DNA of 64,000 bases, taken from assembly GCA_902499925.1 (NCBI GenBank), contig GCA_902499925.1_4130.1; one strand, given 5' to 3'. The notes beneath the pieces were generated by a model. It was not told where the DNA came from. It searched no databases and saw only the letters and a list, made by a program, of their open reading frames with translations. Made by a program: the position numbers and the translations under genes. The stretch is from Escherichia coli (GTDB taxonomy: Bacteria; Pseudomonadota; Gammaproteobacteria; Enterobacterales; Enterobacteriaceae). Of the stretch, positions 1-14,241 are shown one piece after another. Position 1 is the stretch's first letter; every line of letters starts with the position of its first letter.

Positions 1-104
1 TAGCTACTTCCCGCATCAGTTCATCAAAGTTAGCCATTTTATTACTCCTTTTAGTGGGGGAGGATATCTCCCCCTATGCAAAACATTATACGCTTTATTC
101 AGTA

Positions 105-368
105 CTATGCAAGTACTTTTTTCATATAAAGATTATATTCTACACCGCCGTAACCTTCTACGATGATATGTTTTGCGTTATCACGTTTGCATATAGTAAA
201 GGCATCGTTGACGTGTTTTGCATTTTCCAGGGCAACATCGCCGATAGCGGCACATACTGAACTAATAACGATATTCCGCAAAGTACTGGTATCATTAGCG
301 GTCATAGTAGTTTGCAGTACTACGTTGTCGTATACGTGTGCATTGATAGTGATTTCGATAGTGTTCAT
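105..368 (-). CDS. hypothetical small early protein (87 aa)
   Basis: Track ORF 105..422 trimmed to Met19; AGGAGA RBS upstream of ATG; 5'-UTR hairpin (388-409) and promoter-like box upstream. Confidence 0.55.
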   Translation of the reverse strand: MNTIEITINAHVYDNVVLQTTMTANDTSTLRNIVISSVCAAIGDVALENAKHVNDAFTICKRDNAKHIIVEGYGGVEYNLYMKKVLA

Positions 369-455
369 GGTGTATCTCCTGGACTTGAGGGGAAACCATT
401 TCCCCCTCTCGATATAAAACATTATACGTTAATCTAACTACAATGCAAGTACTTT

Positions 456-647
456 TTAAATTTTATTTCCGATATAGTCCGGTCTATTCTTTTCGGTCAT
501 ACGCTTTGCTAATGATTGCATATGGCTTATTGCGTTTAATGTGTCTTCCTCCAGGGATGAATCAACATAATCAGGATCATTCTTCACCTTGCAATGATTA
601 TGATATCGTAGTACTGCCAGTACTTTTTTAACTTCTTCAACTGTCAT
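456..647 (-). CDS. hypothetical protein (63 aa)
   Basis: Minus ORF whose ATG overlaps the stop of 644..916 (ATGA), suggesting translational coupling. Confidence 0.5.
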   Translation of the reverse strand: MTVEEVKKVLAVLRYHNHCKVKNDPDYVDSSLEEDTLNAISHMQSLAKRMTEKNRPDYIGNKI

Positions 648-916
648 AATAAGTATTCCACTTCGTTAGCTTTCAGGTTAGTATCAATCATCAGTGGATT
701 TTTGTAGTTCACAAAACGAGTAGTTTTCTCGATAGCGAATCCCATATAATCCAGCTTACTAACAGTACATTCATTCTTAAAAACTTCTTTCGCTGCATCG
801 ATGGCTGATTGCATGGATAACCGCCCATCTAAGTTAATATTTCCAAATGATCCACCAGCAGAAGTAGGATTACCGTTCATATCTTTAATGATCATAGTAG
901 CGGAGTAGCTGGACAT
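644..916 (-). CDS. hypothetical protein (90 aa)
   Basis: Minus ORF; RBS AAAAGGAAAC before ATG; 5'-UTR hairpin 938-958 and promoter upstream. Confidence 0.6.
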   Translation of the reverse strand: MSSYSATMIIKDMNGNPTSAGGSFGNINLDGRLSMQSAIDAAKEVFKNECTVSKLDYMGFAIEKTTRFVNYKNPLMIDTNLKANEVEYLL

Positions 917-1000
917 AATTTTGTTTCCTTTTAGTATCGGGGAGAACTATTCTCCCCTTGATGTAAACTATTATACAGTACTAATATACTTTGTCAATAC

Positions 1001-1222
1001 TTAATTACGTTTAAAATGATATGTGCCTTTATCATCCTGTACGCCCCATACTGATTTACCATCAACACCAGTGAAACCGGATTGTAATTCAATATGGAAA
1101 CCATTATTATCAACTACAAAAACTTTTTTATTTTCATCCCGATAACATTGATATTCTGAATCAACATTAAAGGCCGCATCATTCAGAAGATTGGAAGCGT
1201 AAATGCAAGTCATTGTAGTCAT
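1001..1222 (-). CDS. hypothetical protein (73 aa)
   Basis: Track ORF trimmed to Met12; RBS TTAAGGAAT; hairpin 1243-1262; promoter TTGCAT-16-TATAAT at 1277-1304. Confidence 0.6.
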   Translation of the reverse strand: MTTMTCIYASNLLNDAAFNVDSEYQCYRDENKKVFVVDNNGFHIELQSGFTGVDGKSVWGVQDDKGTYHFKRN

Positions 1223-1397
1223 GATTTTATTCCTTAATATACCAGGGAGAACCATTTCCCCCTCTCGATATAAAACATTATACTTGATTCTAAGTACAAT
1301 GCAAGTACTTTTTTAAAAATAGTTTTCAGTACTGAATACTTATATAATATATACACTTCCGCACCCTATGGGTCAGTGAGTTATCTCTCAATGAATA

Positions 1398-1437
1398 TAT
1401 AATAGCAAAGGGACTGACCGGAGTCAATCCCTTTTTT
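1398..1437 (-). promoter_or_regulatory. terminator-promoter cassette (early-region variant)
   Basis: Minus strand reads GGGATTGAC-tccg-GTCAGTCCC then TTTGC-TATTAT. Confidence 0.5.
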
Positions 1438-1445
1438 AATCTTTT

Positions 1446-2030
1446 TTATCGTGTTACCTTACTTGCTTCTACATCACGCTTTTTATAGTACTGATTCCAG
1501 ATATTGCGGGTTAAACCGTAATCAAGTACTTTAATAAGTCCATTACGATCCTGGCCGATATTCTGTTTTCTGATATCTCTTATCGTTAGTGTTGATAATG
1601 TATCATCAACGTGTTGTAGTGCATCAGCAAAGCGGTGCTGGCGTTCGATTGCATTACGTTTAATATTGTACTTTAATTCGTTGCACGCGTTAACGTGCTT
1701 CACACTGCCTTTACTTGCAGTACTCAACCGATCCATAACGATAAACATATTATCAGGATCGCATAAATGCATATGCACCTTTGCAAAGTACTGTTTCAAC
1801 TGAGGGCGGTCATAGTCTAAAAAATTCCATACCTTACATTCAGTTTCATTTTGTTCTACACCCGCATCACAATTCGCGACCTTAATCACTAACCGATCAT
1901 TTAAAGCGAAAACTATACGGGAAGAACCAGCACCGATGATCTCCAGGCCAGCTAACCGACAAGCTGAAAGGATCTCTTTGTTGGTTTCCATTTCTGACAG
2001 TGTACGGATGAATTTAGTATAATTACGCAT
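1446..2030 (-). CDS. protein kinase-like mini-kinase (194 aa)
   Basis: Track ORF trimmed to Met20 with RBS AAGGAGA; Gly-rich loop IGAGSSRIV, VIKV lysine, catalytic-loop-like RDIRKQN and DYG 18 residues later; protein ends about 20 aa after DYG. Confidence 0.55.
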   Translation of the reverse strand: MRNYTKFIRTLSEMETNKEILSACRLAGLEIIGAGSSRIVFALNDRLVIKVANCDAGVEQNETECKVWNFLDYDRPQLKQYFAKVHMHLCDPDNMFIVMDRLSTASKGSVKHVNACNELKYNIKRNAIERQHRFADALQHVDDTLSTLTIRDIRKQNIGQDRNGLIKVLDYGLTRNIWNQYYKKRDVEASKVTR

Positions 2031-2061
2031 TGTTTTATCTCCTTGAGTTAATGAAACTATA

Positions 2062-2304
2062 TTACAGTACTTTACTATCAATGGCAACTACTTTTTTAAC
2101 ATTAACGGCGTGGATCACTTCCTTCGTGTTTTTAGTACTGAATACTTTCGCCGCACCATTCACGACCGTGATACGATAGCGACCATTAACATCAACCATA
2201 TTAATAAAGTCCGGCGTGCTGAATGGTGTTGTTTTACATTTCAGTACTGTTAACAGTTCCACCAGCGATGTAGTTTCTTTGATACGTTTTTCTAAAGTAA
2301 TCAT
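2062..2304 (-). CDS. hypothetical protein (80 aa)
   Basis: Trimmed to Met20; RBS GGGGGAAACAAA; promoter TTGACA-17-TACTAT upstream; upstream region duplicated at 2580-2640. Confidence 0.5.
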   Translation of the reverse strand: MITLEKRIKETTSLVELLTVLKCKTTPFSTPDFINMVDVNGRYRITVVNGAAKVFSTKNTKEVIHAVNVKKVVAIDSKVL

Positions 2305-2361
2305 TTTGTTTCCCCCGTGTTGGTATGTACATATAGTACTAAAACATTTGAGTACTGTCAA

Positions 2362-2580
2362 TTAGATAATATTATATTTCTTAAAATAAAATGCGTCCTG
2401 TGTTGGTTGATACTCGATACCGTTACCGTTATTGACTTCAACTAATAAACCTTTGTCAATAAGTTTTTTAATAGTACGATACCCTTGTTGAAAATTGGTA
2501 AAATGTGAATCATTACGAAAGGTATAACCGTGCTTAACTGCTTCATCAATAGTTTTCTTTTCGATTTTAGATAATTTCAT
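2362..2580 (-). CDS. hypothetical protein (72 aa)
   Basis: Trimmed to Met20; RBS GGGAGAAACAAA; upstream leader nearly identical to that of 2062..2304. Confidence 0.5.
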   Translation of the reverse strand: MKLSKIEKKTIDEAVKHGYTFRNDSHFTNFQQGYRTIKKLIDKGLLVEVNNGNGIEYQPTQDAFYFKKYNII

Positions 2581-2633
2581 TTTGTTTCTCCCGTGTTGGT
2601 ATATGTACATAGTACTAAAACAATTGAGTACTG

Positions 2634-2888
2634 TCAACGTGATATTAGTTTTATTTTCTTATTATATTGTTGGTGTTCATATAGGTTTATCTTTCCTGTG
2701 TTCTCTATTACTATTCTGTTGTTAGTGTCTACATCGATTACACGCAGTTTTCCGTTGCTTAACTTCCTTGGTAATAGGTTACCATTAATAAACTCATTAG
2801 CAAGCTGTACGGCCTTTGTGATGATTCTCTGAGGTGCTTTATAGTGTACCCGCAAGATATTATCTTTATATAGTTGAACCTTAATCAT
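2634..2888 (-). CDS. hypothetical protein (84 aa)
   Basis: Minus ORF; RBS AGGATAAACTAAA directly after terminator hairpin of upstream gene. Confidence 0.55.
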   Translation of the reverse strand: MIKVQLYKDNILRVHYKAPQRIITKAVQLANEFINGNLLPRKLSNGKLRVIDVDTNNRIVIENTGKINLYEHQQYNKKIKLISR

Positions 2889-2902
2889 TTTAGTTTATCC
2901 TA

Positions 2903-2928
2903 TAAAAAAGGCGGGAACTGATCCCGCC
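2903..2928 (-). terminator. intrinsic terminator (hairpin GGCGGGATCAGTTCCCGCC + U-run on minus RNA)
   Basis: GC-rich inverted repeat followed by T6 in the direction of minus-strand transcription, immediately 3' of 2951..3346. Confidence 0.55.
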
Positions 2929-2950
2929 GTGTTGTTAGTACTGCAAGTTA

Positions 2951-3346
2951 TTAGATAACCTGGCGGCGTTTACTGTATACTGTTACACGATTACCCTTAC
3001 GGTCGTGTCGGATCTCTTTCTGGTTGCGAATCAGTTCACTTGGACGCTTAAGGTTTGCCAGGTGATCCGCGTGAGTCCAAGCGGTATGGTTTACCTGTAC
3101 TTTGATATCAGAACCAGCGATAAACTCATCTTGTGCGTTAAGTACTGCCGCCAGATCTTCCGCTCGTTTTAGTTCTGCTGCTGTTAGTACTGGCTCAGGT
3201 GAATTCACAATATCAGAGATCTCTTTGAACTGTACGGCCCAACGTTGGCCTTTCGGTGCATCTTTGCCCATGTCTTTAAATGCTGCTCCTTCCTCGCGTG
3301 CAACAATACGGGCAGCTTCACGGGTAGCGTAGAATTTAGTAATCAT
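2951..3346 (-). CDS. hypothetical protein (131 aa); paralog of 15602..15865
   Basis: Minus ORF, start at Met4 with AGGA RBS; shares KFYATREAARI...FKDMG...RWA...DRKGNRVTVY with 15602..15865. Confidence 0.6.
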   Translation of the reverse strand: MITKFYATREAARIVAREEGAAFKDMGKDAPKGQRWAVQFKEISDIVNSPEPVLTAAELKRAEDLAAVLNAQDEFIAGSDIKVQVNHTAWTHADHLANLKRPSELIRNQKEIRHDRKGNRVTVYSKRRQVI

Positions 3347-3441
3347 GGTATACATCCTATTAGTTAAGTTAGTACTACAAGTTAGAGTCTATTATAAAGT
3401 ACTATCTGGGCAATGTCAAATAGTACTTTAAATGGATTCTA

Positions 3442-3765
3442 TTACATGTCTTTCTTACGTTTTACATCGTAGTAGCGAACTGTTATTTCTTTGTTAATCT
3501 CTTTTTCGATGTGGTGAATAACTTTTTCTTTCGGGTTGAAACCTATAACGGTTTCTTTAATGATCTCCAAACCAGTGTATTCGCCTTGTGTGCCGTAACC
3601 GTATGTAAAGGTTTCATGTCCCAGGTCTTCCCAGCGGTCGCCAATTAACGCAGACACGTAGCAAGAGTGGTAAGTATTGCCGTGTGAATCAGTCCACCGA
3701 TTAACTTTAATGTCAAAGGAGGTTACAATTTTCAATTCTACTTTCTGGGCAAGGATCATAGCCAT
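3442..3765 (-). CDS. hypothetical protein (107 aa); paralog of 10290..10613
   Basis: Minus ORF; shares RWTDSHGNTYHSC(Y/H)VS and FTYGY motifs with 10290..10613; promoter 3822-3850 and hairpin 3789-3807 upstream. Confidence 0.6.
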   Translation of the reverse strand: MAMILAQKVELKIVTSFDIKVNRWTDSHGNTYHSCYVSALIGDRWEDLGHETFTYGYGTQGEYTGLEIIKETVIGFNPKEKVIHHIEKEINKEITVRYYDVKRKKDM

Positions 3766-3788
3766 TTTTATTTCTCTCTTTTAGTTAG

Positions 3789-3807
3789 GAGGGGAACCAT
3801 TCCCCTC
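3789..3807 (-). promoter_or_regulatory. 5'-UTR stem-loop (family member)
   Basis: GAGGGGAA-loop-TTCCCCTC inverted repeat between promoter and RBS. Confidence 0.5.
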
Positions 3808-3821
3808 ACTTGATGTAAACT

Positions 3822-3850
3822 ATTATACAGTACTAAGATACTTTGTCAAT
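3822..3850 (-). promoter_or_regulatory. sigma70-like early promoter (TTGACA-16/17-TATAAT)
   Basis: Reverse complement reads TTGACAaagtatcttagtactgTATAAT. Confidence 0.6.
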
Positions 3851-3852
3851 AC

Positions 3853-4035
3853 TTATTTTTTGGAAAGTTTACGCATTAATTCTACGCTTTCTTGTGAACG
3901 TTTTGCTACCTGGCAAGCTGCATGGACAGTAAACATTTTTGTATAGTCTGACGCTTTGCCACCGAACCGAGCGGCACGTTCACGGGCACTTGGAACTAAT
4001 ACTATTTCTTTCTTGCAGATAGTGCACTTAGCCAT
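3853..4035 (-). CDS. small CxxC protein (60 aa)
   Basis: Trimmed to Met16 (MAKCTICKKE); RBS GAGAGAAATAAAA; hairpin upstream. Confidence 0.5.
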   Translation of the reverse strand: MAKCTICKKEIVLVPSARERAARFGGKASDYTKMFTVHAACQVAKRSQESVELMRKLSKK

Positions 4036-4123
4036 TTTTATTTCTCTCTCTTTGTTAGGAGGGGAACCGTTTCCCCTCACTCGATGTAAACTATTATACA
4101 GTACTAAGATACTTTGTCAATAC

Positions 4124-4399
4124 TTAATTATTGTAAATGTCGTGAATAGTGATAAAGTTTTTACGACCGTAAACCTGCAAATCAATATCAATGTAGTGCT
4201 TATCTAGTACATCCTCGACGCTTAACGCGGTGTCGTGGATATCTTCGTAGAATTGAGGATCTACAATCTTGCTTAAGTCATCCGGCGTTAACTTATCGTT
4301 AAGCCATTGAACCGCCTGGATATCTGCTTCACGTTTCCAGTCTTCCAGGTTAGTAGTCAGTACTTGTTCGATTTCGTTAGCTGTCAGTAGAATCCGCAT
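4124..4399 (-). CDS. hypothetical acidic protein (91 aa)
   Basis: Minus ORF; RBS AAGGAAACATAAAA. Confidence 0.6.
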   Translation of the reverse strand: MRILLTANEIEQVLTTNLEDWKREADIQAVQWLNDKLTPDDLSKIVDPQFYEDIHDTALSVEDVLDKHYIDIDLQVYGRKNFITIHDIYNN

Positions 4400-4665
4400 T
4401 TTTATGTTTCCTTATCAGTGGTTGATGTAAGTATTATACTCTTTTACTTTCTATTGTCAAACTATTTTATCAGGGGAGGTTTTCTTATGTCTTACTCCTG
4501 GACTACTTAACGGGGTTACTTGTTTCGTTCCCCGTCCTGATGTAAAACATTATACTTGATTCTAAGTACAATGCAAGTACTTTTTTAAAAATAGTTTTCA
4601 GTACTAGCCACCAGCATATAATAGATACATTTATGCACCCTGTGGGCTGATTTGTTTCTATGCGT

Positions 4666-4705
4666 ATATAATAGCAAAGGGACTGACCGGAGTCAATCCC
4701 TTTTT
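4666..4705 (-). promoter_or_regulatory. terminator-promoter cassette (early-region variant)
   Basis: Same element as 1398-1437. Confidence 0.5.
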
Positions 4706-4714
4706 CAATTATTT

Positions 4715-4864
4715 TTAAACTTCTTTCGGGTTGCGATAGGTGATAGCGTTCGGGTACATTTGTTTAATGTTATTCCATGCCTGGTTAACATTGTAACCAC
4801 TTGAGCGAATCAGTTGGTTACTACCGACACCTTGAAACACTACTTCGAATAAGAATTCTTTCAT
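4715..4864 (-). CDS. hypothetical small protein (49 aa)
   Basis: Untracked ORF MKEFLFEVVFQGVGSNQ...; ATG overlaps TGA of 4861..5034 (ATGA); followed by terminator cassette 4666-4705. Confidence 0.35.
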   Translation of the reverse strand: MKEFLFEVVFQGVGSNQLIRSSGYNVNQAWNNIKQMYPNAITYRNPKEV

Positions 4865-5034
4865 GCTTTCACCTCGCGATCTGCTTTACCTTTACGCCAG
4901 GACATTACTAATTGTTCGCGTTGCCATAAGTCGAGTGATACAAAAAGTTTTGCGGTATCACTTTTAGGATACTCGCCATTAGTACCTAACCGATAAAACA
5001 GATCTTTCAGTACTGATAATTCTACTTGGATCAT
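4861..5034 (-). CDS. hypothetical protein (57 aa)
   Basis: Track ORF 4861..5136 trimmed to Met35 (MIQVELS) with RBS AGAGGAAAG; hairpin upstream. Confidence 0.5.
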   Translation of the reverse strand: MIQVELSVLKDLFYRLGTNGEYPKSDTAKLFVSLDLWQREQLVMSWRKGKADREVKA

Positions 5035-5120
5035 TATACTTTCCTCTTTGTTGGGAGGGGAACTATTCCCCTCTCGATATAAAACATTATACACTTTATT
5101 CAGTACTGTGCAAGTACTTT

Positions 5121-5333
5121 TTAATCTTTCAGCCAATGATCCTGAATGAATTTTTCGCCGGAACCTTGCTGCATAGATTGTAACAGACGTTCACGATGAG
5201 CGGCGGCGAATTGCTCAGTACTATGCGTTACACCTGGTTGATATCTGGATTCACCATTGGGGGCGATGTATTGTACATCCCACGGTTTTTCGTTAGTATC
5301 AGACCATTTACGAACGATTAGTTGACCTTGCAT
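5121..5333 (-). CDS. hypothetical protein (70 aa)
   Basis: Minus ORF; RBS AGAGGAAAGAAAA; hairpin GGGGAGAATCATTTCTCCCC upstream. Confidence 0.6.
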   Translation of the reverse strand: MQGQLIVRKWSDTNEKPWDVQYIAPNGESRYQPGVTHSTEQFAAAHRERLLQSMQQGSGEKFIQDHWLKD

Positions 5334-5416
5334 TTTTCTTTCCTCTTAGTGGGGAGAATCATTTCTCCCCTTCATGTAAACTATTATACAGTACTAGATT
5401 ATCTTGTCAATAGTTT

Positions 5417-5740
5417 TTATTCACCTTGTTTGAATTTAGTTTTCTCCATTGATTCCATGATTGCAACCAATACACCGTGGATCTCGCTTAACGCGGAATC
5501 ACTAAAAGCATTAATGAATAGTCGATCATTCTCGCGAATATTTTTAATGTACTTTTCAGCAGTAGTTGCGAATTCATTCAACGGTAGATCAAATGCTTTA
5601 TCCCATGATGGATGGCGTAATTGTAACAGTACTGGATTATCACGATCACCAGGGGAAAACGTACCAGTGATGAAACATACGCCCGGAATACTTTCGAACT
5701 GGCAACGGACTTCCTTTGTGATAGTAGTATGAATGTACAT
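5417..5740 (-). CDS. hypothetical protein (107 aa)
   Basis: Minus ORF; RBS AGAGGATAACAATAA. Confidence 0.6.
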   Translation of the reverse strand: MYIHTTITKEVRCQFESIPGVCFITGTFSPGDRDNPVLLQLRHPSWDKAFDLPLNEFATTAEKYIKNIRENDRLFINAFSDSALSEIHGVLVAIMESMEKTKFKQGE

Positions 5741-5767
5741 TTATTGTTATCCTCTATTAAATTAATA

Positions 5768-5956
5768 TTACAGTTTATGAATCAATTCTTTATCTAAGCG
5801 ATAGCGTACATTATTAATGGTAACAGCATTATTTTTAATGCTACGCTGTACAGGTCCACCAGCAATAACAAATGTTGCTTTATTACCCCGAACAATGATA
5901 GCACTTCCAGGATTACCGAAATCATCTTGTACTAAAATACTTGATAAGTTTTCCAT
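5768..5956 (-). CDS. hypothetical protein (62 aa)
   Basis: Minus ORF; RBS AGAGGAAATAAAA; hairpin upstream. Confidence 0.55.
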   Translation of the reverse strand: MENLSSILVQDDFGNPGSAIIVRGNKATFVIAGGPVQRSIKNNAVTINNVRYRLDKELIHKL

Positions 5957-6034
5957 TTTTATTTCCTCTTAGTAGGGGAAGATGTTTCCCCTTGATGTAA
6001 GTACTATAACAGTACTGAAAACTAAATGCAAGTA

Positions 6035-6391
6035 CTATGATAAAATCATGATAGGATATTCACTATCGATCAGTACCTCGAATCCGAAACCTTCGTACCA
6101 TTCTTTAAGATTAAAGGCGTTATCTTCTCCCGTATCGCATTCTAAGATGATACAATCTGAATCATCAGCGGCATCGATAAAGGCATTCATTAATTCGTTA
6201 CCTTCACCATTGCCCCGACTATCAGGATCAACATAAAGAGAATCAATAAACGCTACACGGTCATAATCAAGATCCGGTGCAATGATTCCACGTTTAACAA
6301 ACCAGTACTGCAATTGTGCTACTTTGCCCTGTACTTGATAGCCAGTGATCTCGCCATTGTCAGTAGTACGCGTGATATGTTGTATTCCCAT
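6035..6391 (-). CDS. GNAT-like N-acetyltransferase (118 aa), tentative
   Basis: Motif VDPDSRGNGEGNELMNAF resembles the GNAT acetyl-CoA-binding motif A; RBS GAGGATAG; TATAAT box upstream. Confidence 0.5.
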   Translation of the reverse strand: MGIQHITRTTDNGEITGYQVQGKVAQLQYWFVKRGIIAPDLDYDRVAFIDSLYVDPDSRGNGEGNELMNAFIDAADDSDCIILECDTGEDNAFNLKEWYEGFGFEVLIDSEYPIMILS

Positions 6392-6455
6392 GATTACTAT
6401 CCTCAGTTAAGATATAAAACATTATACACTATCTTTCAGTACTGTCAATTACTTT

Positions 6456-6713
6456 TTATCTCATAGATCTATGCCAACAATTACGCGGGGGACGTTTAAA
6501 AGTACTATCATGATCCTCCTGGCAAGTAATGCAGTACATGCACCCTATAACGGCCTGGCGTCGATTCTCAGGGATTTTATCGCCGCAGTCGAGGCAATGT
6601 ACTAGTGATTCTCTTTGTGCGTTAATTTGCTTTCTAGCGTGGTTGACGGCGGCCTGAATCACTGCGTTGATCTCGTCTTGTTCGGCCCCGTCTTTCGCGT
6701 ATCCTACTGCCAT
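6456..6713 (-). CDS. TraR/DksA-family C4 zinc-finger protein (85 aa)
   Basis: C-x2-C...C-x2-C arrangement (CLDCGDKIPENRRQAV...CITCQ) typical of TraR/DksA zinc fingers; RBS GAGGTTAAAATA. Confidence 0.6.
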   Translation of the reverse strand: MAVGYAKDGAEQDEINAVIQAAVNHARKQINAQRESLVHCLDCGDKIPENRRQAVIGCMYCITCQEDHDSTFKRPPRNCWHRSMR

Positions 6714-7042
6714 TATTTTAACCTCATTATAAAAATACTATAGTACTGTAATGCTACAATAATACTACTAGTGTTTATCTTATTCAAACCATATGATACT
6801 ACATATCCATCAGCATTACCACGGATAGTAACGCCTTTGTACTGTCTATATAAATTCAACTGCGTATATTGCCTTTGATCAAGAATTGATCAGAATTATA
6901 CGCCTTATGCTAAATTAATCCAGTACTTTTTTGATCATTTATTGATCGATATTATATAGTTACATTTGTGCACCCTATGGGTTAGTGACGTTCTCGTCTT
7001 GATGTAAGTATTATGCCAGTACTGGAGGATATTGTCAATAGA

Positions 7043-7246
7043 TTATTTTAATTTTTTTCTGTCATTGATTAATGCTTTCAGTACTATACTAATAACTTGC
7101 AATGATTCATCAATGACAATGAAATTATTCTCTTTCATTAGATGATAGTTACCATTGATTGTATATTCTAACGAGTACTGTTTACGTTTAATTTTTGATA
7201 ATGTTTCTATTTGTTTTTGTACTGATTTCATGCTAATCATTGTCAA
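7043..7246 (-). CDS. hypothetical protein (67 aa)
   Basis: Minus ORF; weak RBS; follows terminator-like hairpin 7314-7339. Confidence 0.4.
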   Translation of the reverse strand: MTMISMKSVQKQIETLSKIKRKQYSLEYTINGNYHLMKENNFIVIDESLQVISIVLKALINDRKKLK

Positions 7247-7345
7247 ACGTCCTGTAACGCATTCTAACGAGATAAACGGTTTAGTACTGGCATTGTATAG
7301 GGTAAATGATTAAAGCCCACCAGCGTTAACCAGTGGGCTATAATC

Positions 7346-7489
7346 TTACATCTTGCGGATAATCTTAACAGTATCTTTCACCGATTTACCGTTTTGCTGA
7401 CATTGCTCGATCATCGCGTATTGTTCTGCGGTCAGATCCTCGCCAGTTTTTGCCAGTACTGCGTCGATGAATGAATCCAGTGCGATCAT
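7346..7489 (-). CDS. hypothetical small protein (47 aa)
   Basis: Untracked ORF MIALDSFIDAVLAKTGEDL...; RBS AGAGAGAAACAAA. Confidence 0.35.
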   Translation of the reverse strand: MIALDSFIDAVLAKTGEDLTAEQYAMIEQCQQNGKSVKDTVKIIRKM

Positions 7490-7588
7490 TTTGTTTCTCT
7501 CTTAGGTTAAGTTAACTACTGTTTATAAAACTTATTATACAGTACTATCAAACGTTGTCAATATCTTTAATAGTACTGGTAATATATT

Positions 7589-7768
7589 TTAGCGGTAATC
7601 GTCGTATGCTTTATTCACCTGGCGAATGTAACTTTCAAAGGCTTCGTCTACCGTTTCATACTCCCGAACATAATCACCATAGGAAACTACATACATACCT
7701 TTTTGATCTTCAAACGTCATGATGATAGAATCCAGGCCGATGATTTCAGTTTTTGCGATGATAGCCAT
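7589..7768 (-). CDS. hypothetical protein (59 aa)
   Basis: Trimmed to Met22; RBS AAGGAATTAAAA. Confidence 0.5.
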   Translation of the reverse strand: MAIIAKTEIIGLDSIIMTFEDQKGMYVVSYGDYVREYETVDEAFESYIRQVNKAYDDYR

Positions 7769-7850
7769 TTTTAATTCCTTAGTAGTGTAGTTGATAAAAG
7801 TTATTATGCCAGTACTATCAATCAGTGTCAATAGTACTGTGATAATATTT

Positions 7851-8063
7851 TTAGTTAATGATAGTCAGTGTAAAATTGTAATCCCCTGCCTGGTATAGTA
7901 CTTTGTCGCCGAACGTTCCAACACGTTTCATATTGCAATAGATACCCATAACACTTTTTACATCTTTGATATTCCGAACGCCAGTAATATCCTTGTTTAA
8001 ATGATCGTGATCAGAAAATAAAACTTGTTTTGCATTTTTCAGTACAGTGCAGATATTAGCCAT
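7851..8063 (-). CDS. hypothetical protein (70 aa)
   Basis: Minus ORF; hairpin 8084-8103 and promoter upstream. Confidence 0.55.
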   Translation of the reverse strand: MANICTVLKNAKQVLFSDHDHLNKDITGVRNIKDVKSVMGIYCNMKRVGTFGDKVLYQAGDYNFTLTIIN

Positions 8064-8083
8064 TTTGTTTTCTCTCTGTTAGT

Positions 8084-8103
8084 GGGGAGAATCATTTCTC
8101 CCC
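8084..8103 (-). promoter_or_regulatory. 5'-UTR stem-loop (family member)
   Basis: Perfect 8-bp inverted repeat GGGGAGAA-tcat-TTCTCCCC. Confidence 0.5.
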
Positions 8104-8157
8104 TTGATGTAAACTATTATACAGTACTATAATCTATTGTCAAACTATTTTTTTATA

Positions 8158-8499
8158 TTATTCGAAATCTTCTGGACCGGACTGATAATCATCTTCACCG
8201 TATGCACTTTCTAACCGCTCACCAGTGTGATCATCAGTTAGTGAGTCATCCTCATAGTTCACGTCTACGCCAGTGATGTAAAACTGGCTATCGTCTGGAT
8301 CATTGAAATTAATTTTTTGGATGTTTACAATAACTGTATTGATACCCAGGACACCGCCATCAGCCGTTACAAAGTACTGATAGTTTTCGCAACCGCCTGA
8401 ATTGAAACCGTAATTAATTTCGGCCCGACCATCATTTAAACGCAGTGCCTGGGCGATGATTTCATTTTCAAAGTTAGATTGAGCAATTGAGATAGTCAT
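8158..8499 (-). CDS. hypothetical acidic protein (113 aa)
   Basis: Minus ORF; RBS AAGGAAACAAATC; hairpin upstream. Confidence 0.6.
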   Translation of the reverse strand: MTISIAQSNFENEIIAQALRLNDGRAEINYGFNSGGCENYQYFVTADGGVLGINTVIVNIQKINFNDPDDSQFYITGVDVNYEDDSLTDDHTGERLESAYGEDDYQSGPEDFE

Positions 8500-8681
8500 G
8501 ATTTGTTTCCTTATTACCAGGGGAAACCGTTTCCCCTTTCGATGTAAAACATTATACGCTTATTGAGATAGTTTGCAAGTACTTTCTACAAATACTTTTA
8601 AAATAGTTTTCAGTACTCAAACATTATATAATAGATACACTTATGCACCCTGTGGGCTAGTGAGCTATCTCTCAATGAATA

Positions 8682-8720
8682 TATAATAGCAAAATGGCTG
8701 ACCGGAGTCAACCACTTTTT
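8682..8720 (-). promoter_or_regulatory. terminator-promoter cassette (early-region variant)
   Basis: TGGTTGAC-tccg-GTCAGCCA then TATTAT. Confidence 0.5.
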
Positions 8721-8864
8721 TCATTTATTTTTAGCTTTTAGAATCGCCGCCTTTCGCGTCATGCCTTGCTTGATGTATTCCTGTACTTTCGCTTTACGTG
8801 CATTCGCTTTATTTGCTTTCGTAAACGCCGAACAACTTTTATAATTTAAGCCTGTTGGATTCAT
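8721..8864 (-). CDS. hypothetical small basic protein (47 aa)
   Basis: Untracked ORF MNPTGLNYKSCSAFTKANKANARKAK...; last gene of a three-gene coupled unit, followed by terminator cassette. Confidence 0.35.
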   Translation of the reverse strand: MNPTGLNYKSCSAFTKANKANARKAKVQEYIKQGMTRKAAILKAKNK

Positions 8865-8954
8865 TTAAATCACCATAAAGAATAGATAGGTTACTAACAA
8901 TGCCGCGATCAATGCACCGACCAGGGCCGAACTATAGTAAGCTAATGATTTCAT
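8865..8954 (-). CDS. hypothetical hydrophobic peptide (29 aa)
   Basis: Untracked ORF MKSLAYYSSALVGALIAALLVTYLFFMVI; ATG overlaps stop of 8951..9103. Confidence 0.3.
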   Translation of the reverse strand: MKSLAYYSSALVGALIAALLVTYLFFMVI

Positions 8955-9103
8955 TTTTTAGCCTGAAAGTAATGTTTAATTTGAGCGGCGGTCAGTGCAC
9001 AATTACGCAGGAAGTTTTCTGTATAACTGCGGCGAGTACTGAAAGAGAATTGACCTTTGCCGTTACCGATAGTAACATCAAACCGAGCGTTGTATTGTTT
9101 CAT
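8951..9103 (-). CDS. hypothetical protein (50 aa)
   Basis: Trimmed to Met11; RBS AGGAGAAACAAA; hairpin upstream. Confidence 0.45.
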   Translation of the reverse strand: MKQYNARFDVTIGNGKGQFSFSTRRSYTENFLRNCALTAAQIKHYFQAKK

Positions 9104-9181
9104 TTTGTTTCTCCTGTTATTGGGGAGAATCATTTCTCCCCTTCATGTAAAACATTATACAGTACTAAAAACTAATTGCAA

Positions 9182-9331
9182 GTACTATTTTTTAGATTTA
9201 CGCAAACTTTCTACCATCTCAGGAGTAAGGCCAGGCGGGTAGAAAACCACTTCATCAACGAAACGTAAAGGGAATACCCCATCTAAGGTTGAACGTGCTT
9301 TCTTGTTAGTACTCTTTTTTGATGCTTTCAT
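9182..9331 (-). CDS. hypothetical small basic protein (49 aa)
   Basis: Untracked ORF MKASKKSTNKKARSTLDG...; RBS AAGGAATATGAA; hairpin upstream. Confidence 0.4.
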
Positions 9332-9400
9332 TTCATATTCCTTAATTAGTGGGGAGAATCATTTCTCCCCTTCATGTAAAACATTATACGCGTTTAAAAA

Positions 9401-9610
9401 CTAATTGCAAGTACTATTTGAAAGTAAATGCTCATACGCTGCATTAACTACGTTTTCAATAACCGACTGTACAGAAAGATCCCCCACGGCCTGGCTATAG
9501 TAGAAATCGCTTACAGTGGTGTCATCGTATGCAAATACTTTACCAGGTACTGCATCAATCACATACATATTAACCTTTAAGATGTCGATCTTATCCTGTA
9601 CAGTAAGCAT
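9401..9610 (-). CDS. hypothetical protein (69 aa)
   Basis: Minus ORF; RBS AAAGGTTAATTAAT. Confidence 0.5.
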   Translation of the reverse strand: MLTVQDKIDILKVNMYVIDAVPGKVFAYDDTTVSDFYYSQAVGDLSVQSVIENVVNAAYEHLLSNSTCN

Positions 9611-9615
9611 ATTAA

Positions 9616-9888
9616 TTAACCTTTTAAGTACTGGCTTAAGTAGTCTTGTTGATCTTCGGTGATTGCAGCCATCTTCCCTAGTACTGGATTGATGATATAA
9701 TCCCCTGTAACGTCCTGTAACGCATTCTCAGGCGGTTTAACGGCTGGGGTAGCCATAGCCATTGCCTGGACTTGTTCGACGCTGTAACGCTCATAAAGGC
9801 GGCATTCTTCCGGTGTTAACATAGCATCAGTACGCTTCATCGGTTTAATGATGCTTTCGATCTCATTCAGTACTTGATTAACGTTCAT
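9616..9888 (-). CDS. hypothetical protein (90 aa)
   Basis: Minus ORF; RBS GGGGATTATACC. Confidence 0.55.
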   Translation of the reverse strand: MNVNQVLNEIESIIKPMKRTDAMLTPEECRLYERYSVEQVQAMAMATPAVKPPENALQDVTGDYIINPVLGKMAAITEDQQDYLSQYLKG

Positions 9889-9939
9889 GGTATAATCCCC
9901 AATATAAGCGGCCTGAATCGACCGCTAACGATGTTTTGA

Positions 9940-10209
9940 TTAATAGGTGTATGGTTGACGCTCAAACAATGATTGCACGTTGTACGCCCCGCTTATGGGC
10001 TTCGCTGGTAAATCAATTTTATATTGTTCACGCTTAAAGATAATAAAACGGCAATTGTTTTTAACATCAAAATTGATTGAACGTTCCAGGAGTTTTCCAT
10101 CGTGCACAAATACAAGATAACCGCTTGCTACTTGTTTTGTAGTACTGGTTGCAACCATAGACCGACGAACATGTGTACCTGCATCGATTAAAGTACTGAT
10201 ATTTTTCAT
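9940..10209 (-). CDS. hypothetical protein (89 aa)
   Basis: Minus ORF; RBS AAGAGGATCGTATA. Confidence 0.6.
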   Translation of the reverse strand: MKNISTLIDAGTHVRRSMVATSTTKQVASGYLVFVHDGKLLERSINFDVKNNCRFIIFKREQYKIDLPAKPISGAYNVQSLFERQPYTY

Positions 10210-10289
10210 TATACGATCCTCTTAAGTTAATTTAATTTCTTTCCCCTATGCAGACACTATATCAAAGTATCTGCATAAAGTAAAGCTAA

Positions 10290-10613
10290 TTAAAGATCTT
10301 TTTTGCGTTTAACATTCTGTACAGTACAATGCAACGGGATATTAAGATCATTGCACAAACGAGTAAGGGAGGTTTCATCAGTATTAAGCCCGTCTACTGA
10401 TTCCTTTAAGAGAGATAACGCCGTTTGTTGATATGCATCTTCATAGCCATAAGTAAATGATTCAACCGCCAGATCATTCAAACCGTTATCCAGTTCAACG
10501 CTTACATGACAAGAATGATAAGTATTGCCATATGAATCAGTCCAACGTTTACCGTCAACATTGATTGCACGGATTGCAGCCAGGGAAACGGTGTTAATGA
10601 TAGTTTTAGCCAT
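10290..10613 (-). CDS. hypothetical protein (107 aa); paralog of 3442..3765
   Basis: Minus ORF; RBS AAGGAATACAAAA; shared RWTDS(Y/H)GNTYHSC motif. Confidence 0.6.
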   Translation of the reverse strand: MAKTIINTVSLAAIRAINVDGKRWTDSYGNTYHSCHVSVELDNGLNDLAVESFTYGYEDAYQQTALSLLKESVDGLNTDETSLTRLCNDLNIPLHCTVQNVKRKKDL

Positions 10614-10702
10614 TTTTGTATTCCTTAAATTAATATGTTGTCTTGATAAAATCTATTATGCCAGTACTATCAAACTATGTCAATAGTACTGTGATAATAT
10701 TT

Positions 10703-10846
10703 TTACTTACTTTTTTCTTTCTTTATTACTTCCACCTGGTCGGCCCATTCTTTACCCCATACTTGTAAATTATAATGGTACTGGCAAAGAGCAACGCCCC
10801 GCTTTAAACCCGTAATAGATTTCTGACCACATTGACAAGTTTTCAT
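10703..10846 (-). CDS. hypothetical small Cys-containing protein (47 aa)
   Basis: Untracked ORF MKTCQCGQKSITGLKRGVALCQYH...; RBS AAGGAAACTAAA; hairpin upstream. Confidence 0.4.
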   Translation of the reverse strand: MKTCQCGQKSITGLKRGVALCQYHYNLQVWGKEWADQVEVIKKEKSK

Positions 10847-10932
10847 TTTAGTTTCCTTGTAGTGGGGAGAACCATTTCTCCCCTTGATGTAATGTATTAT
10901 ACTTTATTCGATTTACTTTGCAAGTACTTTTT

Positions 10933-11160
10933 TTAATTTAATTCATCAAGGCAAAGGATACGCTCAACGCCCAAATCAGTTAAACTAATCGACGGCACTT
11001 GATAGGTTTCAATGTATGCTACACTTGCCCACTGACCGAACTCATTAACGGCCCAGGTATTCATTGCATTTTGCAATTCCGCACCTTCCTTGTTGGTAAT
11101 GACTGCAACTACTTGTTCGTTGCCAGTAGTACCAGATACGCGAGTAATGATAATAGCCAT
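10933..11160 (-). CDS. hypothetical protein (75 aa)
   Basis: Trimmed to Met20; RBS AAAGGAATCAAAACA; promoter TTGCAC-16-TATAAT upstream. Confidence 0.55.
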   Translation of the reverse strand: MAIIITRVSGTTGNEQVVAVITNKEGAELQNAMNTWAVNEFGQWASVAYIETYQVPSISLTDLGVERILCLDELN

Positions 11161-11396
11161 TGTTTTGATTCCTTTGATTTGGAAGGAGAACCGTTTCCCC
11201 CTCTCGATGTAAAACATTATACGCTAATCTCTTAATCGTGCAAGTACTTTTTATTACTTTTTGCAAAATACTTTAAACGCTCTCAATCGCATTACAACGA
11301 CCTTAACGCCACCAGCTAGGGCAATTGCATCAGATAATCAGTTTAATGCGTTAGAATCGTTTCTAGGCGGTGCTGGTGGCCTGGTAAACGATAAAC

Positions 11397-11425
11397 ACAA
11401 AAAAGCCCACCATTTAAGGTGGGCT
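11397..11425 (-). terminator. intrinsic terminator
   Basis: Hairpin AGCCCACC-ttaaatg-GTGGGCT followed by U6 on minus-strand RNA, 3' of 11447..11929. Confidence 0.6.
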
Positions 11426-11446
11426 AGTGATTCAGTACTTTAATTG

Positions 11447-11929
11447 TTATGCTTCAACTTTGCGATGAGCTTCGATCCATTCCTCGCGAGTCATACCGCT
11501 GGAGTTAATCGCATCCAGTACTACAGCAATGCAGTTACCACGCACCGGAATCAGATATTCTTCCCCGTTGTCCAGTACTACCGCTACGCGTTCCTGAATC
11601 CATTTTTTTGCTTTTACTTCTGGCTTATCTTCCCCGTACTTAACCGCCAGGGCTTTTTGTGCCATCTCTGTAACTACTTCCAGATCCAGCCCAACTACTG
11701 CCGCCTGAATACTTTCAATTGTTGCTTGCAGTTCTGCTTCACGGGCCGCTTTCGCCGCTTCAATTTCTGCCGCTTTATTTGCTTGTAGTTCTTTCGCAGT
11801 ACTGTACGCGATGTTAAAATTATTGCGTACCGCTTTCATGGTATCGTTGTCCAGTTCAGCCAGGATCTCAGCCGCGACGTTAGTTTCATTTGCTACCAGT
11901 GCTTTGATGAATGATTTTACATTAGCCAT
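11447..11929 (-). CDS. Ala-rich protein, predicted coiled coil (160 aa)
   Basis: Trimmed to Met6; RBS GAGGATTTATAAA; promoter TTGACA-16-TAGAAT upstream. Confidence 0.6.
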   Translation of the reverse strand: MANVKSFIKALVANETNVAAEILAELDNDTMKAVRNNFNIAYSTAKELQANKAAEIEAAKAAREAELQATIESIQAAVVGLDLEVVTEMAQKALAVKYGEDKPEVKAKKWIQERVAVVLDNGEEYLIPVRGNCIAVVLDAINSSGMTREEWIEAHRKVEA

Positions 11930-12131
11930 TTTATAAATCCTCAATTAAAGTTTAGTTTACGTTTATTAGTGTATCAAAGTTTTCTCGACGTGTCCAGTTT
12001 TTCGTTCGACTTACTGGCGGTCTACTTAGTGCTCCCCGTCTTGATGTAATACATTCTACGCCTTTTTGCGGTAATGTCAACTACTTTTTTTAAAACTATT
12101 TTCAAAGTATCTCAGTACTACGATACTATAA

Positions 12132-12161
12132 AAACAAAAAAGCCCACTGTATAAGTGGGCT
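12132..12161 (-). terminator. intrinsic terminator
   Basis: Hairpin AGCCCACT-tataca-GTGGGCT followed by U-run on minus RNA, 3' of 12179..12478. Confidence 0.6.
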
Positions 12162-12178
12162 AGTGATTCAGTACTAGA

Positions 12179-12478
12179 TTATAAACAGTTAATTACTCCG
12201 GTGTGCGTTACTTTCTCAGTATCCATTACAGTGACCGAACCGCGTTTAGTACTTGCATCGTAATAAATTGTCGTGCTACCTTTTTCGTCTTCTTCATGGA
12301 ACGGGCCGCTTTTAAATGCTTCTGGCTGGATCTCTAAATCCTTTAAAACAATCTCGCCAGTACTTTCATTGGTCATCGCTACAGTGCACTGAATGAATTT
12401 TTCATTACTTACATCTAACGACGCATTAACAGCGAAAGAGGAAACAGATAAAGCCAGGGCGATGATTGCAATTTTCAT
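12179..12478 (-). CDS. secreted protein with N-terminal signal peptide (99 aa)
   Basis: N-terminus MKIAIIALALSVSSFAVNA is signal-peptide-like; RBS AAGGATAATCAA. Confidence 0.6.
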   Translation of the reverse strand: MKIAIIALALSVSSFAVNASLDVSNEKFIQCTVAMTNESTGEIVLKDLEIQPEAFKSGPFHEEDEKGSTTIYYDASTKRGSVTVMDTEKVTHTGVINCL

Positions 12479-12562
12479 TTGATTATCCTTAGTTACCAGG
12501 GGGAACCGCTCCCCCTTGCGATGTAAAATATTATACAGTTCTAAAAACTATTATCAAGTACT

Positions 12563-12799
12563 TTATGATTTTTTATAAAACATTTCAGCAGTGATATTTT
12601 TACCCGTTGGCTGTACTTTATCCAGGATTTTTTGATGTCCAGGCCGACCAAATGAATATGATCCGTAAACCGTAAACCAGTAGTTACCCTCAGTGTTTAC
12701 ATGTACAGCACAATAAGGAACACCACGCGATTCATCACTAGTAAAGTGTGATACCGTTCCCGTTACATTCGCAGACGTTGATTTGATTTGTTCGAGCAT
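12563..12799 (-). CDS. hypothetical protein (78 aa)
   Basis: Minus ORF; RBS AAGGAATAAGAAA; hairpin upstream. Confidence 0.55.
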   Translation of the reverse strand: MLEQIKSTSANVTGTVSHFTSDESRGVPYCAVHVNTEGNYWFTVYGSYSFGRPGHQKILDKVQPTGKNITAEMFYKKS

Positions 12800-12906
12800 T
12801 TTCTTATTCCTTAGTTACCAGGGGAACCACTCCCCTATGCAAAACATTATACGCGTTTAAAAACTAATTGCAAGTATTTTAATAAAAAGTATTTGAAAAA
12901 TAGTTG

Positions 12907-12935
12907 TTGACAAGTGCATCCAGTACTGGCATAAT
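12907..12935 (+). promoter_or_regulatory. plus-strand (antisense-oriented) sigma70-like promoter
   Basis: TTGACA-17-CATAAT read on the plus strand; CCCACCGGGTGC box about 30 nt downstream; no plus-strand ORF follows. Confidence 0.4.
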
Positions 12936-13003
12936 TACTACATAAAGACAAAACAGTCTCTAACCCACCGGGTGCCGAGATCCGTCTATTAAATGATTCA
13001 GTA

Positions 13004-13036
13004 CTGAAAAAGTAACGGGGAGTTATTATCTCCCCG
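13004..13036 (-). terminator. intrinsic terminator
   Basis: Hairpin CGGGGAGATAATAACTCCCCG then UUACUUUUUC on minus RNA, 3' of 13042..13263. Confidence 0.55.
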
Positions 13037-13041
13037 CGTTG

Positions 13042-13263: not shown

Positions 13264-13349
13264 TTTATTTTCCTCATTACCAGGGAGAACCATTTCTCCC
13301 TTTGATGTAAACCATTATACAGTACTGAAAACTAATTGCAAGTACTTTT

Positions 13350-13553: not shown

Positions 13554-13570
13554 TAGATAATCCTCAGTAC

Positions 13571-13855: not shown

Positions 13856-13911
13856 TAGATAATCCTCAGTAAAGGCGGGAACCATTCCCGCCATTGATTC
13901 AGTACTGAATG

Positions 13912-14151: not shown

Positions 14152-14241
14152 TTTTAAATCCTCGTTTGAGCGGGGAACCATTCCCCGCCTCGATATAAAG
14201 TATTATACGCTTTTAAACTTAGTTTGCAAGTACTTTTTGAA

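Follow-up and report, generated by a model that had tools for sequence, protein, structure and literature searches.

Gene families and duplicated leaders in a long terminal repeat

The 64,000-nucleotide (nt) stretch of DNA analysed here (the window; contig GCA_902499925.1_4130.1 of the Escherichia coli assembly GCA_902499925.1) begins with an array of small genes in which a first-pass annotation had noted three dispersed pairs of paralogs and two pairs of duplicated leaders. The first 18 kb align with Escherichia jumbo phages of the Asteriusvirus (PBECO4/121Q/G17) type; insertions and deletions (indels) divide the alignment into pieces, which are 92-97% identical, and the closest genomes are classified in the genus Asteriusvirus. 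In the annotation of the relative vB_Ec-M-J, the direct terminal repeats are positions 1-21525, and position 1 of that genome aligns to window position 18381; in fEgEco12, a terminal repeat of 20,993 bp has been confirmed by restriction digests (PMC13070987). The vB_Ec-M-J alignment and the fEgEco12 repeat together place every feature of the first-pass annotation inside the long terminal repeat, and window 1-18381 is, as judged from sequence, an early-gene array within the direct terminal repeat of an Asteriusvirus (Rak2-like) jumbo coliphage. It holds about 50 small minus-strand ORFan genes; up to 16.7 kb every gene lies on the minus strand, and the cumulative GC skew has its turning point at ~18 kb. 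Coding-sequence lengths annotated in related phages agree with the gene coordinates of the first-pass annotation. No tRNAs were found in the window, and an Rfam search of positions 1-19000 (E ≤ 0.1) gave no match. Few of the early genes have a recognisable annotation in relatives, namely a protein-kinase-like gene (1446-2087), a GNAT acetyltransferase gene (6035-6391) and a gene for a DksA-like zinc-finger protein (6456-6713).

Each of the three gene pairs proposed as paralogs, which we call A, B and C (Table 1), proved to be homologous. Single BLASTP comparisons gave 63.9 bits for pair A (E = 2e-19, 35% identity with a 45-residue gap), 85.9 bits for pair B (E = 2e-28, 38% identity over 107 amino acids (aa), gapless) and 107 bits for pair C (E = 9e-38, 66% identity over 79 aa). 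In these comparisons A1 was taken as 2951-3355, A2 as 15602-15901 and C1 as 13912-14181. The all-against-all alignment that the first-pass annotation had proposed as a check, run on 361 open reading frames (ORFs) of the window, recovered the pairs at E = 5e-17, 7e-26 and 4e-35. These are the only significant gene pairs among the ~50 non-nested minus-strand ORFs in positions 1-18400; the remaining matches were short N-terminal artefacts produced by in-frame translation of shared promoters and leaders. Both members of each pair were assigned to one PHROG: phrog_8127 for A (A1, 2e-35; A2, 8e-26) and phrog_6246 for B (B1, 2e-36; B2, 5e-41), in both cases with full-length matches, and phrog_871 for C, whose members also match the Pfam family DUF7249 (PF23907) at 52.2 bits (C1) and 45.0 bits (C2), above the gathering threshold of 27 bits. 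PHROGs places all three families under 'unknown function', and no published description of DUF7249 was found in the literature.

Family B has no Pfam model of its own, and a profile search gathered 1268 clusters (at 50% identity) with E ≤ 0.001, 182 of them with E ≤ 1e-10. Its motifs are RW..GNTYHS, YGYG and DVxRKKDL, in which RW, GNTYH, YGY and D-x-RK-D are nearly invariant. The B domain sometimes stands at the C-terminus of proteins of 200-590 aa, and ten such longer proteins contained no Pfam domain at all.

The two pairs of duplicated leaders were also borne out. Upstream of 2304 and 2580, the promoter-to-ATG sequences agree at 55 of 61 positions counted from the -35 box, and their 29-nt core, TTGACAGTACTCAAWTGTTTTAGTACTAT, occurs within the window only at these two leaders (0 expected). 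For 13350-13553 and 13571-13855, the shared ribosome-binding context is a 21-mer, ACTGAGGATTATCTAATGAGT, which spans the Shine-Dalgarno (SD) sequence, the ATG and the second codon and occurs exactly twice (0 expected). Within both leader pairs, the coding parts are non-homologous.

Promoter-leader cassettes and their hairpins

About 40 promoter-leader segments are present in the early region, and at least 23 of them have a common form in which a sigma70 promoter is followed by a covarying GC-rich 5' hairpin and an SD sequence. On the coding strand, the cassette reads AAAAAGTAC-TTG(A/C)(C/A)A-16 nt-TATAAT-(G/A)TTTTA(C/T)ATC(G/A)A-(7-9 bp GC-rich stem, 3-5 nt loop)-ACTAA/GGTAA-AGGA-ATG; AAAAAGTAC precedes the -35 box in 22 aligned cassettes, giving an AT-rich upstream region next to a consensus sigma70 promoter. 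Pattern searches and repeat families yielded 22-23 cassettes, and a covariance model built from six gapless copies found 23 in positions 1-18400 and one in the other 45.6 kb of the window. A promoter scan returned 12 perfect (12/12) TTGACA-16/17-TATAAT sites, of which the minus strand carries 11. The hairpin is missing from other promoter variants: the A-type promoter, the 2333/2609 pair and a TTGACA-17-CATAAT class, to which the B2 promoter belongs. C1, C2 and the gene at 15282-15512 are preceded by an identical run of 35 nt that extends across the promoter spacer. The genes downstream of the cassettes have no assigned function.

The same architecture is found in phage EJP2 (loci L009 and L010), and upstream of the A homolog in the Klebsiella phages RaK2 and phiKp_21 (L016 and L017); in Phapecoctavirus ukendt (L011), it precedes the B homolog. 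The stems are lineage-specific: GGGGAGAA/GAGGGGAA here, GCGGGAA in EJP2 (in ~12 of the 28 plus-strand EJP2 cassettes listed by a pattern scan), GGGGCAA in RaK2 and phiKp_21, and GGCGGGAAG in ukendt. Such homogenisation within genomes amounts to concerted evolution and fits frequent exchange between copies. Within the window, cassette similarity falls with genomic distance (r = -0.17, permutation p ~0.009) and the three most similar pairs are neighbours, so some local copying or homogenisation does occur. No published description of these cassettes in Asteriusvirus was found in the literature.

Two further observations concern the cassettes. At 4433-4585, one appears to have lost its gene: the promoter is followed by a hairpin whose loop is enlarged (ACGGGG-14 nt-CCCCGT), by AGGAG and by ATA in place of ATG, and then by a second perfect promoter, hairpin-free, that serves 4124-4399. 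In addition, an exact leader 17-mer matches a 109-kb IMG/VR contig with four cassettes.

All 23 cassettes fold into hairpins with stems of 7-9 bp (-10 to -16 kcal/mol, z-scores of -2 to -6) that begin at a fixed position, 10-14 nt after the -10 box, and are followed by ~5-12 nt, the SD sequence and the ATG. Since plain MAFFT alignments of the cassettes left the stems out of register, pairs were counted from the loop outward and a covariance model was built. By the loop-outward count, seven of nine stem positions show changes on both sides, and swapping 3' arms between cassettes lowered pairing from 100% to 83% (0/5000 shuffles reached 100%). A model-based alignment combined 52 hairpin copies of this phage, EJP2 and ukendt; seven of eight pairs vary in both arms, and pairing holds in 97.6% of cells compared with 84.2% in shuffles (0/500), a percentage that leans high because the structural alignment was fitted to the covariance model. 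Less affected by this fitting are the double changes (49 cells compared with 12 in shuffles, 0/500) and an asymmetry between strands, in which 24 cells are G-U in the sense strand and the antisense equivalent is a C-A mismatch. Slid-register controls of the same alignment gave far lower pairing.

These patterns bear on whether the GC-rich inverted repeat acts in DNA, as an operator to which a dimeric phage repressor would bind to silence the early promoters, or as a terminator of transcription arriving from upstream. It is a near-perfect palindrome just downstream of the -10 box, a common position for operators, genome-specific stem types would fit a co-evolving binding protein, and one stem-loop of a comparable system in T4-type phages (discussed below) does terminate transcription (PMC2839356). 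Yet both arms change together to keep pairing instead of preserving a fixed half-site, and the 24 G-U cells pair in the sense RNA only. No T-run follows any of the leader hairpins, and none was called terminator-like on the coding strand in silico, in contrast to true terminators of the region, such as that at 2910-2928, which do carry one; the leader hairpin is therefore unlikely to terminate transcription. Overall, we regard a DNA operator or terminator as quite doubtful and infer that the hairpin is a sense-strand structure of the 5' untranslated region (UTR), most likely stabilising or insulating early mRNAs. Transcription starting ~7 nt after the -10 box would leave 4-7 unpaired nt before the stem. 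A more speculative suggestion, which we consider unlikely, is that the hairpins form a regulon-wide RNA operator, marking some two dozen early mRNAs for a phage or host factor (e.g. for timed shut-off or protection); stems that are homogenised within a genome and differ between lineages (here, EJP2 and RaK2) would fit co-evolution with such a trans-acting partner.

Breakpoints among relatives and the history of the gene families

The window was aligned to eight Asteriusvirus loci, and the ends of high-scoring segment pairs (HSPs) were taken as breakpoints. All 40 promoter-leader intervals together make up 20% of the region and contain 23 of 38 breakpoint clusters compared with 7.9 ± 2.5 expected (0/20,000 permutations reached 23), part of this excess reflecting the survival of intact genes because the null model is uniform over the region; under a stricter definition, the count is 10 of 40, compared with 4.6 expected (p = 0.013). 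In seven events, a single chimeric cassette in one phage corresponds to two cassettes flanking a gene in another, the flanked gene being either extra in relatives (window 904-1002, 4418-4472, 10607-10735 and 16194-16273) or missing from them (2383/2577 in SP27, 3861/4029 in 121Q and phAPEC6, 12565/12837 in 121Q). The SP27 junction shows that the duplicated leader 2305-2361/2581-2637 is itself a recombination site: base by base, its promoter-upstream side is the 2581-2637 copy and its downstream side the 2305-2361 copy, with the crossover within the shared TTGACAGTACTCAA core, leaving one chimeric leader and no gene 2362-2580. Similarly, the GNAT gene is missing from G17 and BF17, and both ends of this deletion (6017/6438) lie in promoters. 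Slots also vary in content, with unrelated genes in the C1 slot of 121Q, G17 and fEgEco12, and a third B allele in the B2 slot of SP27 and phAPEC6.

Could the cassettes resemble one another by convergence, with selection for sigma70 promoter strength and translation initiation arriving at the same consensus in the absence of shared ancestry or recombination? The -35 and -10 boxes do match the host consensus, and SD sequences are constrained. Identity nevertheless runs through unconstrained positions, as in the 35-nt run shared by C1, C2 and 15282-15512 and in the 2305/2581 pair, whose matching positions include the spacer and the initial transcribed region; the stems differ by lineage (GCGGGAA in EJP2 as opposed to GGGGAGAA/GAGGGGAA here), and sister phages contain chimeric junctions. 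Convergence is thus a highly improbable explanation.

The first-pass annotation had attributed the paralogs and leaders to repeated local duplication and divergence, in which genes and leaders are copied within the region and drift in place, with no special recombination and no exchange with the outside. Several observations favour such a process: 13 kb of a single strand hold all six paralogs, promoter sequence is common to both members of pairs A and C, the similarity of cassettes decays with distance with the top three pairs adjacent, and the leader pair 2305-2361/2581-2637 is tandem. The ages of the copies argue otherwise. A1, A2, B1, B2, C1 and C2 have orthologs of 86-100% identity in most of the eight relatives, whereas the copies are only 35-66% identical to one another; the pairs are therefore old, their duplication preceding the radiation of these phages, and no recent duplication is visible. 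Nor are the paralog copies tandem. Moreover, C1 is 73% identical to a protein of Phapecoctavirus ukendt, and C2 is 83.5% identical to one Vequintavirus protein and to one EJP2 copy, so that each is nearer to homologs in other subfamilies than to its partner (66%). At the DNA level, the ends of family C genes are 76-100% identical and the difference is confined to a central block of ~80 nt, which comes in two types found across genera. With its near-identical ends and swapped centre, family C points to exchange of alleles among coliphages or separate acquisition rather than divergence in place.

The distribution of the families and their promoters was also compared. Family C extends to Vequintavirinae, Stephanstirmvirinae, T7-like podoviruses and cyanophages, family B was found by tblastn in Asteriusvirus genomes only, and family A occurs twice in Asteriusvirus and once in Rak2-like jumbo phages of Klebsiella, Erwinia, Serratia, Yersinia and Salmonella. 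The upstream promoter and leader are homologous within pairs A and C, while the B promoters differ; the C-type promoter also precedes the unrelated gene 15282-15512. Neighbour combinations are B1->A1 and C2->A2 here (at 3347-3441 and 15866-15950), C->A and B->A in EJP2 (L009 6026-6721 and L010 4944-5654), and B->C in ukendt (L011 146-840); two genes found upstream of A homologs, RaK2 ORF352 and Munch gp034, do not belong to family B. This adjacency of A, B and C hints at a functional link. On a more speculative reading, the three could be modules of a single early system that replace one another under diversifying selection, given that B and C have conserved ends around swapped centres.

The duplicated leaders fare no better as leftovers of gene duplication, as they precede unrelated proteins and belong to a large population of portable promoter-leaders, and sister phages hold unrelated genes in the same slots. 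What stands of the original proposal is that the pairs are true homologs, that A and C share promoters and that some local copying takes place; as the main account of the region, with old copies and C1/C2 centres swapped among coliphages, plain local duplication is unlikely.

Instead, we consider it probable that the early array consists of portable promoter-leader-gene cassettes that have been reshuffled by recombination at shared regulatory sequence, with the three old paralog families as passengers. Most early genes would stand behind their own host-type (sigma70) promoter, and the promoter-leader segments would serve as portable regulatory cassettes. Given their length of 60-110 nt and their likeness, copies within one genome or in co-infecting relatives could undergo homologous recombination that deletes, inserts or replaces the gene between them, and the outcome would be gene-by-gene mosaicism. 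Families A, B and C would have been carried along, anciently duplicated or separately acquired and then reshuffled in the cassette system, two of the pairs keeping a shared promoter, and the 'duplicated leaders' would be cassette copies before unrelated genes.

A number of points weigh against this interpretation. Surviving breakpoints would gather in intergenic DNA, here mostly cassette, even if nothing but selection for intact genes were at work. The 21-nt repeat is never a breakpoint, and no deletion between its two SD copies was found in the eight relatives, in which nearby indels end at 13348-13363, 13566 and 13607. Two of the four leader observations, the 2305-2361/2581-2637 pair and the 21-nt SD repeat, are hairpin-free. 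The predicted unpaired tail of 4-7 nt would be at the long end of the range known to protect 5' ends, and the early timing, the start site and the presence of the hairpin in RNA are deduced from consensus promoters only. Finally, the families themselves offer little by way of function: Pfam gave nothing for A or B and only DUF7249 for C, PADLOC gave no match for these proteins, and profile searches against PDB sequences gave chance-level matches only, with fold matches weak or none; an RNase H-like fold was considered as a candidate for family B.

Around the 21-nt repeat, a 252-nt stretch (13355-13606) is missing from vB_Ec-M-J, BF17 and JNE01, in which a single 261-nt gene appears to begin as 13571-13855 does, for ~83 codons, and to run into the stop of 13350-13553; phAPEC6 lacks 13349-13565 instead.

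Table 1. Window positions of the terminal repeat, family genes, duplicated leaders and cassettes
Feature	Positions	Strand	Remarks
Part of ~21 kb direct terminal repeat	1..18381	.	repeat end ~18381; vB_Ec-M-J alignment, PMC13070987
A1	2951..3346	-	family A, 131 aa; variable middle between conserved N-terminus (~40 aa) and conserved C-terminal beta-hairpin
A2	15602..15865	-	family A, 87 aa; short form lacking the ~45-aa variable middle
B1	3442..3765	-	family B, 107 aa; directly upstream of A1
B2	10290..10613	-	family B, 107 aa; third allele (~32% identical) in same slot of SP27 and phAPEC6
C1	13912..14151	-	family C, 79 aa; Phapecoctavirus-type centre; slot with unrelated genes in 121Q, G17, fEgEco12
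C2	15951..16190	-	family C, 79 aa; Vequintavirus/EJP2-type centre; directly upstream of A2
B1->A1 intergenic	3347..3441	-	A-type promoter ATTTAAAGTACTAT...GATAGTACTTTATAATAG; homologous to 15866-15950
C2->A2 intergenic	15866..15950	-	A-type promoter; homology to 3347-3441 begins at stop codon of upstream gene
ORFan, 80 aa	2062..2304	-	behind leader copy 1; unrelated to 2362-2580 product
Leader copy 1	2305..2361	-	TTGACA-17-TACTAT, no hairpin
ORFan, 72 aa	2362..2580	-	behind leader copy 2; missing from SP27
Leader copy 2	2581..2637	-	SP27 crossover inside this repeat
ORFan, 67 aa, phrog_29832	13350..13553	-	21-nt start repeat; missing from vB_Ec-M-J, BF17, JNE01, phAPEC6
21-nt SD-ATG repeat copy 1	13548..13568	-	exact repeat
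ORFan, 94 aa, phrog_19040	13571..13855	-	weak DUF1033 match; 21-nt start repeat
21-nt SD-ATG repeat copy 2	13850..13870	-	exact repeat; hairpin GGCGGGAAtggTTCCCGCC before it
Leader-hairpin cassette	44..86	-	promoter -10 at ~85
Leader-hairpin cassette	375..422	-	pattern, fold, covariance model
Leader-hairpin cassette	927..971	-	extra ~400-nt gene between two copies in relatives (window 904-1002)
Leader-hairpin cassette	1232..1278	-	fold, covariance model
Leader-hairpin cassette	3778..3823	-	drives B1 (predicted); 90% identical to 4048..4094; intervening gene missing from 121Q, phAPEC6
Leader-hairpin cassette	4048..4094	-	fold, covariance model
Leader-hairpin cassette	5043..5087	-	fold, covariance model
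Leader-hairpin cassette	5339..5384	-	top covariance-model score, 73 bits
Leader-hairpin cassette	5962..6007	-	one end of GNAT-gene deletion of G17, BF17 (6017/6438)
Leader-hairpin cassette	8072..8117	-	fold, covariance model
Leader-hairpin cassette	8507..8552	-	fold, covariance model
Leader-hairpin cassette	9110..9155	-	fold, covariance model
Leader-hairpin cassette	9339..9384	-	fold, covariance model
Leader-hairpin cassette	10852..10897	-	fold, covariance model
Leader-hairpin cassette	11171..11217	-	extra 153-nt gene inserted in relatives (11173/11203)
Weak cassette match, E 0.54	12019..12054	-	behind TTGACA-16-TAGAAT
Leader-hairpin cassette	12486..12531	-	121Q lacks gene up to 12808..12847 cassette; 45-nt junction overlap
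Leader-hairpin cassette	12808..12847	-	relatives' alignment, covariance model
Leader-hairpin cassette	13270..13315	-	seven HSP ends of relatives at upstream edge (13348-13363)
Leader-hairpin cassette	14158..14203	-	drives C1 (predicted); stem GGCGGGGAA/UUCCCCGCU
Leader-hairpin cassette	15522..15566	-	C1/C2 promoter variant; drives unrelated 76-aa gene (predicted)
Leader-hairpin cassette	16198..16242	-	drives C2 (predicted); stem GGUGGGGAA/UUCCCCACU, compensatory relative to C1; extra gene between two copies in relatives (16194-16273)
Leader-hairpin cassette	16653..16702	-	stem AGCGGGAA, type dominant in EJP2

Other features, related systems and meaning

Several features of the window lie beside the cassettes and families described above. 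The ~1.9 kb at 16760-18680 hold no convincing genes and cover both the end of the terminal repeat (~18381) and the turning point of the GC skew; within them are a degenerate array with a period of 8 bp (TAGCCGTC, 17475-17573) and ATGATTACAT repeats at 18294-18317 and, again, at 18523-18560. On the plus strand, 23391-41295 carries a paralog family much larger than A, B or C, made up of 14 or more ~380-aa genes whose pairwise E-values go as low as 2e-60; one relative of this family is called weakly similar to a putative DNA condensation protein in the G17 annotation. A second larger paralog family forms a run of ~60-aa genes at 18684-23060 on the minus strand.

The palindrome AGTACT occurs 275 times in the whole window compared with 21.5 ± 5 expected from dinucleotide shuffles, a strong palindrome excess that is unusual for a phage. 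For its GTAC core the excess is ~3-fold, and the palindrome is often extended to CAGTACTG. The first 23.3 kb are the densest part, with 6.6-8.2 copies per kb compared with 2.5-3 per kb elsewhere. Copies are found in promoters (AAAGTACTTGCAA, CAGTACTGTATAAT) and terminator stems, and also inside genes and close to stop codons. Finally, an intergenic module of ~135 nt recurs at 1312-1447, 4586-4717 and 8596-8731 with 85-98% identity, and partial copies lie near 6951 and 15167. It contains a hairpin, AAAGGGATTGAC-tccg-GTCAGTCCCTTT, with a plus-strand T-run, and the motif AGCCCACAGGGTGCATAAATGTATCTATTATAT, and could be a terminator plus another type of promoter, or a small RNA.

The closest described system to these cassettes is the promoter-early stem-loop (PeSL) of T4-type phages, in which a sigma70 early promoter with a stem-loop is repeated in hyperplastic regions upstream of ORFans and mediates indels and replacements, with mini-circles shown experimentally (Arbiol et al., 2010, PMC2839356; Comeau et al., 2014, PMC4122927). 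The cassettes have in common with PeSLs a consensus sigma70 promoter with an AT-rich upstream region, an adjacent stable stem-loop with G/C tracts, a concentration of copies in a hyperplastic region upstream of small ORFans (23 of the 24 covariance-model matches lie in 1-18400) and indel or replacement breakpoints within the motif that leave a single chimeric copy, the last judged against a uniform null. They differ in their host genome, a Rak2-like jumbo phage outside the T4-type group, though Rak2-like phages share some T4-like core genes (PMC5259590). In the Rak2-like phage CBB, RpoD-like promoters have been described in a presumed early region reaching into the terminal repeat, along with 22 paralogous ORFs, and no cassette or hairpin was described (PMC5259590). 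Unlike in PeSLs, the array here lies in a direct terminal repeat, no terminator or attenuator function was seen in silico, and the stem-loop keeps one fixed position inside the predicted 5' UTR and shows RNA-type covariation.

Other systems are similar in part. Morons of lambdoid phages, described by Hendrix and colleagues, are autonomous promoter-gene-terminator units and, like the genes here, are single small accessory genes with their own promoter between other genes, variably present among relatives; here, however, they form a dense, uniform array of predicted early lytic genes behind one stereotyped cassette rather than prophage-expressed inserts. Phage T5 carries its pre-early genes in a long direct terminal repeat, and the likeness extends to many small genes of the host-takeover type with strong host-type promoters inside that repeat, although there is no evidence here for two-step DNA transfer. 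In the 5' UTR of ompA, a 5'-terminal stem-loop reportedly stabilises the mRNA (Emory, Bouvet and Belasco, 1992). The leader hairpins would resemble it in being stable and a few nt from the predicted 5' end, upstream of the SD sequence, and would differ in that their predicted unpaired tail exceeds the optimum reported for protection.

Taken together, these results suggest that a giant E. coli phage swaps small early genes, a type of genome plasticity already known from phages and met here in a new group of them, and would extend the model of plasticity at promoter/stem-loop cassettes from T4-type phages to Rak2-like jumbo phages. Exchange at such cassettes would account, gene by gene, for the mosaic early region in the terminal repeat of coliphage isolates of 350-380 kb that are otherwise ~95% identical. 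The list of cassettes may help in the engineering of therapeutic jumbo phages, as it shows where early promoters are likely to lie and where DNA could safely be cut and pasted, and A, B and C are three conserved families of predicted early proteins that are candidates for screens of host takeover or anti-defence functions.

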